64,000 bases of DNA from a bacterium (GTDB lineage: Bacteria; Patescibacteriota; Minisyncoccia; UBA6257; Colwellbacteraceae), in the NCBI GenBank assembly GCA_029548485.1, contig JAKPNH010000007.1:28706-92705 (forward strand). Direction: 5' to 3'. The notes beneath the pieces were generated by a model. That model was not told where the DNA came from. It worked only from the letters and a program-made list of their open reading frames with translations, and ran no database searches. Shown here one piece after another: positions 19,678-22,953 of the stretch; positions within the stretch are counted from its first letter, which is position 1, and each line of letters begins with the position of its first letter. A program made the position numbers and the translations under genes.

Positions 19678-20673
19678 TCAAAAGGGTTGGCCCAGTTTTT
19701 CCAAGAGTTTGTAAGCGTCGGCGAATTTGGCGTAGCCGCGCCACGAGGCCCGGGAATTTTCCCAGGACTCTTCGGACAAAAGATCGTTTCTCACCATCGC
19801 CTCCAAACGGCGTTTCTTTTTCAGGAATCTTTTGACCGTGGATTTCCTCAAAAATCTTTTGTTTCCGCGAATGACGTAACCTAAGAAATCGACTCCTTTG
19901 TCCGTCGGAAAAACTTCGGCCTTTTTGGGGTGTAGCTCCAACCTCAGCCGGTCGCGCAGAAATTCTCGGATGAGCTCTTTGGACTCATGAAGACGGCCCT
20001 TGTCCAAGCCGAGAACGAGGAAATCGTCCATGTATCGGAGATAATATTTTTCCCGCAAGTTCCTTTTGACGAAATAATCGAGTTCGTTCAAATAGATGTT
20101 GGCGAAAATTTGACTGGTGAGATTGCCGATGGGAATGCCGGGCTTGTGGCTCTCGAGTATTTCGCCGAGGAGCCAGAGAACGTCTTCGTCCGGGATTTTC
20201 CGGCGGAAAATTTCCGCGATCAATTCGTGATCGACGTTGTCGAAATATTTGGAAACGTCGCATTTCAGGCAATAGACGCGCCGGCCTCGGGCTTTGGTCT
20301 TCAAGCTTCGCAAGAAACTCTCCAACCTTCTCACGGCCGCGTGGGTTCCTTTTCCTCTGCGGCAAGCGTAGGAATCATAAACAAAACCTTTGTCGAAAAT
20401 CGGCTCGATAATACCGCAAACCGCGTGGTGGACCACGCGGTCTCGGAAGGGCGCCGCCCGAATGGTGCGTTTTTTGGAGTCGCTCACGATGAATTCGCGA
20501 TAGCTTCCGTGCCGATAAGTCTTACTTTCCAATTCTCTTTGGAGCGCGAGGAGGTTTTCCTCCAGACGATGGCCGAATTTCAAAATGGAAAAACGATAGC
20601 GTTTGCAATGGCGGGCGTTAAGATAAGCGCGATGGAGGTTTCGGAAATCGGTGATTCGTTCAAAAAGAGTCAT
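19678..20673 (-). CDS. DGR reverse transcriptase
   Basis: 331 aa. RT motifs include RTIRAAPFRDRVVHHAV and YLRYMDDFLVL (YxDD). Motif 4 reads IPIGNLTSQIF, the DGR-specific [I/V]GxxxSQ form in place of the QGxxxSP of group II intron and retron RTs. Confidence 0.85.
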   Translation of the reverse strand: MTLFERITDFRNLHRAYLNARHCKRYRFSILKFGHRLEENLLALQRELESKTYRHGSYREFIVSDSKKRTIRAAPFRDRVVHHAVCGIIEPIFDKGFVYDSYACRRGKGTHAAVRRLESFLRSLKTKARGRRVYCLKCDVSKYFDNVDHELIAEIFRRKIPDEDVLWLLGEILESHKPGIPIGNLTSQIFANIYLNELDYFVKRNLREKYYLRYMDDFLVLGLDKGRLHESKELIREFLRDRLRLELHPKKAEVFPTDKGVDFLGYVIRGNKRFLRKSTVKRFLKKKRRLEAMVRNDLLSEESWENSRASWRGYAKFADAYKLLEKLGQPF

Positions 20674-20866
20674 GACCGTCGAGAACCCTTGACCCCGCGC
20701 CAGTATATCCGAAAGGCAATGGCGCGGGGAAACAGGTCGTATTTTCCCCTTCGGACACTAAGCCCTAACGAAGAAGGAATAAAAGCAGTAGCCATCTTGG
20801 CGCAGTCCCGGAATCTTTTGATTCCGAGCTCGGGCCAAGGATCGTCAAACGATCCTTATCGATGAG

Positions 20867-20983
20867 TACCGAGCGCAGCGAAACCCAATGTTGTTGTTCG
20901 TGTTGCCCGTAGTTTAGTTCAGGTTCAGCGCAAATGCCCCCGCGTTCGACGTATTGTTCCAGTTGCCGCCGCGTAGGAAGACG
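20867..20983 (-). repeat. DGR template repeat (TR), 117 bp
   Basis: Aligns gap-free with the 3' end of the target gene (offset 603 nt). The coding-sense TR reads ...GGN-W-NN-TS-N-AGAFAL-N-L-N-stop-TTG-N-T-NNN-IGFRCAR, with AAC codons at the positions that differ in the VR. It contains an in-frame TAA. The first 24 nt (20867-20890) are identical to the VR (IMH-like). Confidence 0.9.
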
Positions 20984-21058
20984 CCGCTAACTTCCGCCTT
21001 TATCCCTATCCGGCCGGAAAACCGAAATCGAATCCGGCGCGGACAATTATATTATAGT

Positions 21059-21400
21059 TTATTTCGAAGAAAACTTTTTCATCCAGGAAAAAAGGAGTTT
21101 GCCTATCTCGTTCAATTTTTCCGCGGCCACGCCGTATTGCTTGATGCTAACGAAACGCAGATCCTTGGAAAGCCGTATCAACATCCTTAATTCGTCGAGC
21201 TCGACGCTCGCCTGTTTCAGTAAAGCGGATTTTTCGCGTTCGATGTTGGCCGAGGCCATCGAATGGATAAGATCGAGGGTTTTGTTCTCTATCCTCTGCC
21301 CCAGGACAAACCTCTGGCTTTTGGGAAACTTATTGACGACCGGATGGAGCCAAAGCATGAAGTCGTATGTTTTTTGATAGACGATGAGGTCGTCGATCAT
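21059..21400 (-). CDS. avd: DGR accessory variability determinant (Avd-like four-helix-bundle protein)
   Basis: 113-aa basic helical protein (MIDDLIVYQKTYDFMLWLHPVVNKFPKSQRFVLGQRIE...) located between the target and the TR, as in canonical DGRs. Confidence 0.7.
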   Translation of the reverse strand: MIDDLIVYQKTYDFMLWLHPVVNKFPKSQRFVLGQRIENKTLDLIHSMASANIEREKSALLKQASVELDELRMLIRLSKDLRFVSIKQYGVAAEKLNEIGKLLFSWMKKFSSK

Positions 21401-21468
21401 AATCAGATGTTTTCTTCCGGTTTAAATTTTTTGACGAAAGATTTTAGATTCCAGATTTCTACGCTAGG

Positions 21469-22953
21469 CTACCGAGCGCAGCGAAACCCAATGCTGCCGC
21501 TCGCGCGGCCCGCAGTAGAGTCCAGGGCCAGCGCAAATGCCCCCGCGCCCGACGTAGTGCCCCGGTAGCCGCCGCGCAGGAAGACGGTAGTCGCCTTGTC
21601 AACGCCTGTACCCCAAGTATAGACCTGACCCACGCCTTGGCTCGAATACCAATTATCGTTCGACGGGCCGACCTTGCTCCGGACAACATCGTCGGTCCAG
21701 GAAGAAATATACGGTGTGGTTTGGTTGGAATACTGGCACCAGGTCCAGTTATCGGTACCGTTCGAACAAGGAGGAAGATCGATCTCGTCTACGGCATCTC
21801 CCTGGTTCATGGTGCTTCTTTGGACGTGATCCCAGACATTTCCGGCCAAATCCCAGATAACCGAACCATTAGACAAGGTAAGGGTTCTTCTTTGGTTCGA
21901 GGGGCTTGCGTTGCCGGTGCCGAGATAGCCGTCGGTGTCGCTCGAAGAAGCTTCGAGGGCCAAGGCCGGGGTATTGTCGTTGTGACCGGAAAATAGATAA
22001 CCCGAGCCCGGGGAGCTGCCGGACCAGTTGGAATTCACTTGTTCGGCGTTTCTCGCGATCGTCATCCACTCGTCGTTCGTCAAAAGATGGGCGCCGAGGG
22101 ATTCGCAATAGGTTTTGGCGGTATTGTGGCTGATATTGGCGATCGGATAGCCGGTCGGAGCCGAGGCGATATAGCGCGCTCCGGTGCAGGCTTGGCCGGA
22201 ATTGGAATAGGTATGGTAGCCGGTGTCCGGAGCGGTCAAAGGAGCATTGTTTCCGATGCATTTGGCTTCGTATTTCATGACGAAGAAATCCGACGTTCCG
22301 AAAGCCGAATTGCCGGGAACTTTGACCCAATGGCTCGGAAAAATATAACCGGCGAGGTCGAAATCGGAAGCGGCCTCATAGGCCACCGGAGAGACTCCGC
22401 CGTCGGAATTGGCGGCGCTCAAATACTTTTGCGATTCCAAAACAACCTGGAGTTTCCAGGAGCCGCCGGCGATATATTGGTAATAGTGACTGGCGTCGTT
22501 TACCGGATCGACCGGCAAGCTGCTCAAGGGAAAGCCGAAAGAAAATCTCGTAAAATCCACCGGAACCCAGCCGGTGGAATCGATTTTGCGGATATTGGCC
22601 GCGGGAACGCAAGCATATGACCAACCTCCCGGAAGATCCGGAAGGTCAAGATTGTCGCAAGTTGGAGAATTGTCCGGAGCGGATATATAGATCGTGTTCG
22701 GGCTTCCGAAAGTGCATCCGAAACAATCTATCTCGAGAAAACTCAAGGCTTTGCCCAAAGCCTGGATATCGGAAAGCCTGGTGGAATCGCGGCCCTGGGC
22801 CAAAAGCTCGGCCGGGTTCAAAACAACGACCGTGGCTGTCGACAATATCGCCAGGATTCCGATGACGATGAGCAATTCGACAAGAGTAAAACCGCGCCTA
22901 GCGCAAGAATCTCGGTTTTGTCTACCAGAAAAGCGAAAAATCTTTCCGAGCAT
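21469..22953 (-). CDS. DGR target protein: type IV prepilin N-terminus fused to a C-type-lectin/FGE-sulfatase (SUMF1)-fold domain carrying the variable repeat
   Basis: N-terminus RRG/FTLVELLIVIGILAIL (prepilin cleavage/methylation motif, Phe+1, Glu+5). The C-terminal domain carries FGE/CLec-fold hallmarks (WDLAGNVWDHV ... GGYRGTTSG ... GFRCAR). The last 39 codons form the VR. Confidence 0.85.
   Translation of the reverse strand: MLGKIFRFSGRQNRDSCARRGFTLVELLIVIGILAILSTATVVVLNPAELLAQGRDSTRLSDIQALGKALSFLEIDCFGCTFGSPNTIYISAPDNSPTCDNLDLPDLPGGWSYACVPAANIRKIDSTGWVPVDFTRFSFGFPLSSLPVDPVNDASHYYQYIAGGSWKLQVVLESQKYLSAANSDGGVSPVAYEAASDFDLAGYIFPSHWVKVPGNSAFGTSDFFVMKYEAKCIGNNAPLTAPDTGYHTYSNSGQACTGARYIASAPTGYPIANISHNTAKTYCESLGAHLLTNDEWMTIARNAEQVNSNWSGSSPGSGYLFSGHNDNTPALALEASSSDTDGYLGTGNASPSNQRRTLTLSNGSVIWDLAGNVWDHVQRSTMNQGDAVDEIDLPPCSNGTDNWTWCQYSNQTTPYISSWTDDVVRSKVGPSNDNWYSSQGVGQVYTWGTGVDKATTVFLRGGYRGTTSGAGAFALALDSTAGRASGSIGFRCAR
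21470..21586 (-). repeat. DGR variable repeat (VR), 117 bp, at the 3' end of the target gene
   Basis: 21 mismatches against the TR. Twenty fall at TR adenines in the coding strand (plus-strand T in TR versus C/G/A in VR). One is a non-A difference (TGG in TR versus CGG in VR). Encodes TVFLRGGYRGTTSGAGAFALALDSTAGRASGSIGFRCAR. Confidence 0.9.

Follow-up and report, generated by a model that had tools for sequence, protein, structure and literature searches.

An active chromosomal diversity-generating retroelement with a prepilin-like target protein in Candidatus Colwellbacteria

A stretch of 64,000 nucleotides from a metagenome-assembled genome (MAG) of Candidatus Colwellbacteria, a lineage of the candidate phyla radiation (CPR), contains a complete diversity-generating retroelement (DGR; contig JAKPNH010000007.1 of assembly GCA_029548485.1, positions 28,706 to 92,705; the whole stretch is called the window hereafter). 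On the minus strand the parts of the element follow one another in the order target gene, avd, template repeat (TR), spacer and reverse transcriptase (RT) gene, and the variable repeat (VR) lies at the 3' end of the target gene (Table 1). A first-pass annotation, made from the letters of the window, had proposed a full DGR signature at this place; its parts (the RT, Avd, the adenine-specific divergence of TR and VR, and a target with a C-lectin fold) were each tested and found. The reading preferred here, held with a probability of about 0.93, is that of a chromosomal, currently active DGR of the CPR-type clade, whose prepilin-like target is most likely displayed on a pilus or pseudopilus. It is carried by the anatomy of the cassette, its adenine specificity, a TR that is invariant beside a VR that varies across samples and a covarying RNA helix, together with a modelled fold of the target.

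Reverse transcriptases of the DGR clade are distinguished by [I/V/L]GxxxSQ, which replaces QGxxxSP, and by YxDD (10.1101/2020.04.29.068544). Both motifs are present in the gene to which the first-pass annotation had assigned them, as IGNLTSQ within IPIGNLTSQ and YMDD within RYMDD. The best PDB match of the protein is end-to-end (8ub7_A, 328 aa, E = 2.2e-62), group II and retron-type RTs trail in the same sequence search at about 1e-18 to 1e-15 (with Drt RTs included, no value is better than 2e-18), and no group II, retron or Drt model of NCBIfam comes near its curated cutoff with this protein. Assignment to a group II intron, a retron or a Drt system is rejected on these scores and on context. 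The protein 8ub7_A is taken to be the RT of a Bordetella phage (bRT), because its residue numbers (D138, D215/D216, Q187 of the SQ motif, R74 and I181) coincide with the published bRT numbering. The window RT keeps the catalytic aspartates (D139 and D216/D217) and the equivalents of R74 (here R69) and I181 (the isoleucine of IGNLTSQ), two bRT residues that are reported to promote adenine mutagenesis (10.1101/2020.04.29.068544). The small protein encoded between the target and the TR, initially described as Avd-like, passes the curated DGR model NF033474 (DivGenRetAVD, 109.3 bits for a cutoff of 80) and matches the bAvd family PF22296 (E = 2.4e-26, 92.8 bits for a cutoff of 40); a single-sequence PDB search with it gave no match.

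Scripted re-alignment of TR and VR returned the same ungapped pairing over 117 nt that had been proposed, with an offset of 603 nt. The 21 mismatches are not evenly spread over the TR bases. Twenty are at adenines of the coding (minus) sense, which read as T on the plus strand at each site listed in the first pass (20891, 20894, 20895, 20897, 20901, 20903, 20904, 20910, 20914, 20915, 20919, 20924, 20925, 20945, 20946, 20954, 20957, 20958, 20964 and 20974), and the remaining one, at 20961, turns a coding-sense T of the TR into C in the VR (TGG to CGG). Substitutions affect 20 of the 30 adenines and 1 of the 87 other sites (Fisher one-sided p = 3.4e-14); in the frame of the 494-aa open reading frame (ORF), 18 of the 20 adenine substitutions are at codon positions 1 or 2. 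Ten asparagine codons of the TR correspond to Y, G, T, G, A, D, R, S, G and S in the VR. All ten had been given as AAC, which holds for nine of them, the tenth being AAT with ACT (Thr) in the VR. The replacement of an in-frame TAA of the TR by a serine codon (TCT) in the window VR stood as described, and so did the 24 identical nucleotides at the 3' end, which resemble an initiation of mutagenic homing (IMH) sequence. This shared end is 67% GC; its length is 24 nt when the window allele is taken by itself and 22 nt when all alleles are considered, and a 20-nt core of it is also kept in related DGRs. Within it there is no TR-specific variant of the IMH/IMH* kind, the identity stopping at the stop codon. 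Beyond this pair, neither a blastn-short search nor a scan with adenine positions disregarded revealed another TR-like copy in the window.

Activity of the element is seen when the window is compared with other assemblies. Exact look-ups of the RT and Avd proteins led to contigs of six of them (L001, L002, L003, L007, L008 and L009). The source samples are JGI 3300010344, ERZ27257401, ERZ27257448, ERZ795058, SRR4236665 and SRR5007224. L001 (8016 nt, within a 237-kb contig of the Joint Genome Institute, JGI) differs from the window at 21 positions, all in the VR; L002 (7877 nt aligned) and L007 (1597 nt) also differ solely inside the VR, and L003, L008 and L009 show no differences across the parts that they cover. 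The TR is identical in all seven sequences, and RT and Avd are intact and identical in all contigs. The VR occurs as three alleles, one common to the window and L008, one to L001 and L002 and one in L007; a look-up of the target protein cluster gave one extra allele, the same as that of L001. Relative to the TR the alleles are changed at 20 adenines and one thymine, 23 adenines and one thymine, and 11 adenines and one thymine, which corresponds to 37-77% of the TR adenines per allele. Pooled over the three alleles, 54 of 57 differences are at TR adenines (87 of the 117 sites are other bases), and between alleles the same holds for 19-20 of the 21-22 pairwise differences. Of the 30 TR adenines, only the last base, which is part of the stop codon, is unchanged in all three alleles; the other 29 are replaced in one or more of them. 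The encoded VR peptides end in ...GGYRGTTSGAGAFALALDSTAGRASGSIGFRCAR, ...GGDWYRASDAGAFALGLGWAAGSAGVPVGFRCAR and ...GGSWNDTSDAGACALALPWTTGIANNNIGFRCAR. About 20 adenine-site differences are packed into a span of 86 nt, and the divergence of the background is zero. Three alleles on otherwise identical DNA mean that the VR has changed much faster than its surroundings, and adenine-site changes of the VR on an undiverged background are what mutagenic retrohoming, unlike drift or recombination, predicts. Mutagenic homing is demonstrably ongoing, and the DGR is active.

Of the six contigs, five start inside the VR or at most 6 nt away from it, at window positions 21465, 21469, 21533, 21557 and 21592. 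Because the longest exact identities of TR and VR are short (about 20-24 nt), these breaks fit heterogeneity of the VR within samples better than repeat collapse. Taken with the alleles that differ between samples, the contig ends suggest that the VR is heterogeneous within samples as well. A metagenome scan with a VR-site-specific 33-mer gave no match, though the pattern is present in the retrieved loci, those samples being evidently absent from the collection scanned; a scan with the 20-nt core of the TR/VR 3' end gave related DGRs (L054, L059, L058, L070 and L061) and chance matches, and no new alleles. A separate observation concerns the non-adenine differences: each allele has exactly one, always at a TR thymine (index 22 T>C, 30 T>G and 50 T>G). 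Across the three alleles, changes affect 3 of 66 T sites and 0 of 195 G or C sites (p = 0.016).

The stop codon of the TR (20917-20919; VR 21517-21519, minus strand) occupies a position at which the family consensus has tryptophan. It is TAA in the window, TAG in the related locus L010 and TGA in L029, and more distant TRs have TGG. In four of the five observed VRs the codon is restored to TGG (L001/L002, L007, L010 and L029), and in the window it is TCT. A faithful copy of the TR would cut off the last 16 residues of the target, so that productive homing needs mutagenesis at this very codon. The stop would be a built-in 'mutate or truncate' filter, by which only mutagenised cDNAs give a full-length protein.

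The target protein has the N-terminus of a type IV prepilin, followed by a beta-rich domain in the middle and, at the C-terminus, a C-lectin/FGE-like domain that ends in the VR. Class III signal peptides comprise a short basic leader, the motif G|F(T/S)LxE with glutamate at +5 and then a hydrophobic alpha-1N helix. In the target this segment scores E = 2.8e-7 and 30.2 bits with PF07963 (cutoff 21.2) and 29 bits with TIGR02532 (cutoff 16.3). The GenBank start codon lies 26 residues downstream of the likely start, and the prepilin motif is lost with it. A sigma-70-like promoter candidate precedes the likely start; it is weak, and sites of this kind are no more numerous in the region than expected by chance. 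An AlphaFold model built with 52 homologues (predicted local distance difference test, pLDDT, 89; predicted template modelling score, pTM, 0.84) has a 53-residue N-terminal alpha-1 helix (aa 24-76), a beta-rich domain (aa ~87-235) and the C-terminal domain. The best structural matches of the modelled C-terminal domain are variable proteins of DGRs (TaqVP 19.2, Foldseek E = 4e-8; Mtd 14.1; TvpA 12.6), followed by FGE-family enzymes and C-type lectins. A single-sequence PDB search with the target gave no match and the family profile was needed: its first ~100 positions match solved pilins and pseudopilins (geopilin 2e-9, PilA 2.5e-7, GspG 1.6e-5, also MshA and PilE), and its C-terminal part matches TaqVP. 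The type IV prepilin N-terminus makes display of the target on a pilus or pseudopilus probable.

The family to which the target belongs comprises 1,576 matches (E <= 1e-5); the best 120 of them are full-length, and the N_methyl motif is found in about 95 of these. Judged from these sequences, the combination of prepilin N-terminus and C-lectin domain forms a very large family in Patescibacteria. Members linked to a DGR include the window target and those of L017, L021 and L029. Four more distant members on long contigs (P0084, P0024, P0126 and P0120 on L071, L072, L074 and L075, 47-55% identical) have no Avd or RT within 4 kb, a sample biased to invariant proteins, which assemble well. Such non-linked members indicate that the family is wider than the part of it that is linked to DGRs.

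Between the avd stop and the start of the RT gene, the sequence folds much better than its shuffled versions (z = -4.06). In its fold the two strands of a long-range helix pair with each other and place the TR in an enclosed loop. In an alignment of 10 related DGRs, 87.8% of the cells of this helix are paired and 7 of 14 pairs are changed on both sides; none of 500 shuffles reaches the observed values, and slid controls are 48-64% paired. The two innermost pairs are unsupported in these 10 DGRs. At the place of the GC-rich hairpin that follows the avd stop, relatives have a hairpin of other sequence (judged by eye). Eight of 10 close relatives keep the A-rich box of the spacer at the corresponding position, and the stem of the hairpin near the RT start, with an outer 4-bp helix, shows compensatory changes in the consensus fold. 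Rfam at gathering thresholds gave only tRNAs in the window and no family for the RNA flanking the TR. Conserved RNA elements have been described for the DGR of phage BPP-1 and 207 other DGRs (10.1101/2023.10.23.563531), and the predicted helix and hairpins around the window TR appear to match them.

Table 1. Position of the DGR parts and of associated sequence and RNA features within the window (MFE, minimum free energy).
Feature	Coordinates	Strand	Basis or description
DGR reverse transcriptase, 331 aa	19678-20673	-	RVT_1 (Pfam)
Spacer RNA, structured, partly conserved	20674-20866	-	between TR and RT start
10-bp GC hairpin CCCCGCGCCA...TGGCGCGGGG	20693-20729	-	just upstream of RT start
A-rich box GGGAAAATA	20740-20748	-	after a short stem-loop adjoining the long-range helix
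Long-range helix, downstream strand GCTTTTATTCCT	20775-20786	-	MFE fold and covariation
TR	20867-20983	-	117 nt, 30 adenines, in-frame TAA; outside every ORF on the minus strand
Long-range helix, upstream strand AGGGATAAAGGC	20996-21007	-	MFE fold and covariation
GC-rich hairpin	21007-21045	-	directly after avd stop, upstream of TR; MFE fold
avd, accessory variability determinant, 113 aa	21059-21400	-	NF033474 and PF22296
DGR target (variable protein) gene, 494 aa	21469-22953	-	Pfam N_methyl and FGE-sulfatase, TIGR02532
VR	21470-21586	-	last 38 codons of the target gene and 2 nt of its stop codon
Invariant VR 3' end, IMH-like, TTGGGTTTCGCTGCGCTCGGTA	21470-21491	-	same as TR 3' end
Prepilin cleavage/methylation motif, aa 19-41, ARRG|FTLVELLIVIGILAIL, Glu +5	22831-22899	-	PF07963, TIGR02532
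Sigma-70-like promoter candidate TTCAAA-17-TGnTATGAT	22968-22996	-	15 nt upstream of target start; consensus scan

By homology with BPP-1, an RNA spanning the region after avd, the TR and the spacer would be transcribed. The long-range helix and the spacer hairpins would fold this RNA around a complex of RT and Avd, and the RT would copy the TR into cDNA, misincorporating opposite template adenines. With the 22 invariant 3'-terminal nucleotides and the conserved 5' portion of the repeat as guides, this cDNA would take the place of the VR at the end of the target gene and would leave the TR unchanged; priming in cis, the cDNA initiation site and the mechanism of integration are parts of this scheme that we infer. 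The outcome would be a population varying at about 15 residues of the C-terminal C-lectin-fold domain. Most likely, the target itself would be a substrate of a prepilin peptidase and would be exposed on a type IV pilus or pseudopilus, its variable face serving there as an adaptable binding surface for a presumed ligand, e.g., on host cells.

Several observations weigh against this account of an active, pilus-displayed DGR. The comparison of alleles is at the level of contigs, not reads, and an assembled VR may be a consensus or a chimera of haplotypes. No significant hairpin or cruciform was detected 3' of the VR (z = 0.11), the position of a homing enhancer in BPP-1; IMH/IMH* variants and nearby hairpins are not universal among DGRs. 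The adenine substitutions of the three alleles are mostly A>G (39 of 54, or 72%, with 10 A>C and 5 A>T), unlike those of bRT in vitro, whose commonest misincorporation corresponds to A>T (10.1101/2020.04.29.068544); the spectrum may reflect selection or another enzyme bias. With regard to the RNA, the upstream box was chosen by eye for three sequences, which inflates the covariation test somewhat. RNAalifold on the spacer alone pairs UUCCUU locally with AGGGAA, which competes with the three outer, invariant base pairs of the long-range helix; the covarying inner part of that helix is unaffected by this alternative. A duplex between the TR 3' end and the spacer (GCUCGG:CCGAGC), suggested by the single-sequence MFE fold, was dismissed as a conserved element, its complementarity not being kept in relatives. 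Finally, no solved pilin head fold is among the top structural matches of the target, which are dominated by the C-lectin domain, the N-terminal half having had no search of its own.

A decayed or dormant DGR, with a complete cassette and TR/VR differences that are relics of past homing, would be compatible with the contig-level evidence and with the missing hairpin, as well as with the small number of alleles, only three, two of which are common to more than one sequence (window and L008; L001 and L002). This is very improbable given that the three VR alleles lie in DNA otherwise free of any difference over 1.6-8 kb, that RT, Avd and TR are intact and identical throughout, and that contigs break at the VR. 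The alleles might instead owe their existence to ordinary mutation, or to recombination between strains or paralogues under diversifying selection, with no part played by the RT. Surface adhesin genes are indeed often hypervariable through recombination, and each allele has its one non-adenine difference, but the concentration of differences at TR adenines, both from the TR and between alleles, the lack of a second copy of the segment in the window other than the TR and the absence of any single-nucleotide difference in the flanks leave this explanation with next to no probability.

More weight attaches to the possibility that the DGR is real but diversifies something other than a pilus adhesin. 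Such a target could be anchored in the membrane or secreted, as a binding protein that merely borrows a pilin-like signal-anchor; it could also be a competence or type II-like pseudopilin, or an enzyme of the FGE type. In GenBank the protein goes under the name SUMF1/EgtB/PvdO family nonheme iron enzyme (the RT is called a reverse transcriptase/maturase family protein; HOF50268.1 and HOF50270.1), and FGE-family enzymes are strong structural matches. In addition, the family profile extends to the pseudopilin GspG, 494 aa is far above the size of a major pilin, and the structure searches lack the pilin head noted above. The enzyme name is treated as a fold-level annotation only, because the FGE-sulfatase Pfam match is partial (profile positions 74-190 of 255) and the closest structures are non-enzymatic DGR variable proteins. 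A target other than a pilus adhesin is, on balance, a serious minority possibility.

Relatives of the RT were found at 44 loci, mostly in MAGs of Patescibacteria and DPANN (one genome per GTDB species). At 25 of them a simple purpose-written finder detected an adenine-biased TR/VR pair on the strand of the RT; the others are for the most part truncated contigs. From the taxonomy of these relatives only, we infer that the window RT belongs to the CPR-type clade. According to the papers that cite it, Paul et al. (2017) reportedly gave the first description of a CPR-restricted DGR clade. DGRs are significantly enriched in CPR bacteria, with one RT clade ('clade 2') restricted to them (Roux et al. 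2021, PMC8144416), and Patescibacteria rank with the phyla that have the most DGR-bearing MAGs (PMC11661182); the first-pass remark that DGRs were already reported in CPR agrees with this. The window element is like those of clade 2 in its Patescibacteria host, its adenine-biased relatives, its cellular rather than viral location and its single C-lectin target. In targets of clade 2, neither transmembrane domains nor other conserved ones can typically be recognised (Roux et al. 2021, PMC8144416), whereas the window target and those of the closest RT relatives with complete targets (L017, L021 and L029) have a clear prepilin motif.

With the DGR of BPP-1 (mtd-avd-TR-brt) the window cassette has its gene order in common, and also full-length RT similarity (E = 2e-62), GxxxSQ, YMDD, the arginine and isoleucine of adenine mutagenesis and the Avd family. 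The share of TR adenines substituted per allele, 37-77%, is also comparable with the value for bRT in vitro, about 52% (10.1101/2020.04.29.068544). The predicted RNA resembles the 'cPRT Stop' of BPP-1, with a duplex across the TR flanks followed by a stem-loop and adenosines. In contrast to BPP-1, which is a phage, the window DGR is chromosomal in a CPR bacterium, and its target is a pilin-like protein instead of a tail-fibre tip. The TR is 117 nt long compared with 134 nt, there is neither a visible IMH/IMH* difference nor a GC hairpin 3' of the VR, and the helix has its upstream strand between avd and the TR rather than within avd. The A>G-dominated spectrum and the in-frame stop of the TR are further differences. 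The nearest structural counterpart of the target, TaqVP of Thermus aquaticus (PDB 5VF4), has 15-19% sequence identity to it and, in the aligned part, no counterpart of the pilin N-terminus. The type V pilus adhesins of gut Bacteroides (bioRxiv 10.1101/2024.11.15.621889) embody the same concept, an adhesive pilus component diversified by a DGR; they differ in pilus type (V versus type IV-like), phylum and target architecture. Pilin-type DGR targets receive only passing mentions in the literature (including PMC11661182), and the idea that DGRs tune attachment to hosts is already found in reviews (PMC10221324).

Two other DGRs came to notice among the retrieved loci. An AT-rich related DGR in JGI metagenomes (L059, L054, L058 and L070) has the exact 20-nt TR/VR 3' end GGGTTTCGCTGCGCTCGGTA in common with the window, and its VRs vary between contigs (in L059, VR 656-773 and TR 1331-1448). 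In a Saccharibacteria MAG (L037), one TR is accompanied by three adenine-biased VRs at 4026, 5106 and 9884.

Directly upstream of the target gene, a non-coding stretch of about 1.5 kb (22954-24460) holds four perfect copies of TGTTTCACGTGAAACA, which we take to be the parS consensus, within 200 bp (23646-23842; chance expectation 0.02). Since this parS-like cluster has dnaA (38114-39472) and dnaN (36854-37963) at a distance of 13-16 kb, the DGR appears to lie in an origin-proximal, centromere-like part of the chromosome. On both sides of the cluster ATGGCCG/CGGCCAT occurs 15 times (23260-24430), at 10 per kb compared with 0.45 per kb elsewhere in the window, and two DnaA-box-like sites of the TGTGGATA type are located at ~24165 and ~24279. 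A second pilin-like gene (439 aa, 24461-25780, plus strand) is divergent from the DGR target; its product has a prepilin motif and a fibrinogen-like YCDxxxxGGGW domain (NF040941, 66 bits for a cutoff of 30), and no VR-like repeat of the TR was found in the gene. A T2SSE/PilB-type secretion ATPase (31682-33007, minus strand, E = 1.7e-116) is encoded about 9 kb from the target. On the other side of the element, just past an NTP-transferase gene that abuts the RT gene, is a tRNA-Ile with anticodon TAT (18650-18724, plus strand, ARAGORN), beside a tRNA-Val(TAC).

The cassette adds to the already known and abundant DGRs of the CPR, and leaves the knowledge of how these elements work unchanged; the prepilin N-terminus of the target and the size of the family that combines pilin and C-lectin parts are modest additions. 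It is a clean example, with a complete cassette, an invariant TR, three natural alleles on an identical background, a confident target model and comparative support for the RNA, and thus a good candidate for reconstitution and for a population study at read level of the rate at which a CPR bacterium re-tunes a surface protein. A bolder proposal, to which we give slightly less than even odds, is that the target makes up part of a type IV pilus, probably as a minor or tip subunit, and that a CPR bacterium of the episymbiont type re-tunes the binding of its pilus by means of the DGR, with the TR stop acting as a filter. If true, a pilus subunit would answer the remark of Roux et al. (2021) on CPR targets without recognisable anchoring domains. 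It would also link type IV pili with DGR hypervariation, each of them thought central to the episymbiosis of Patescibacteria, and would offer a concrete handle on host recognition.

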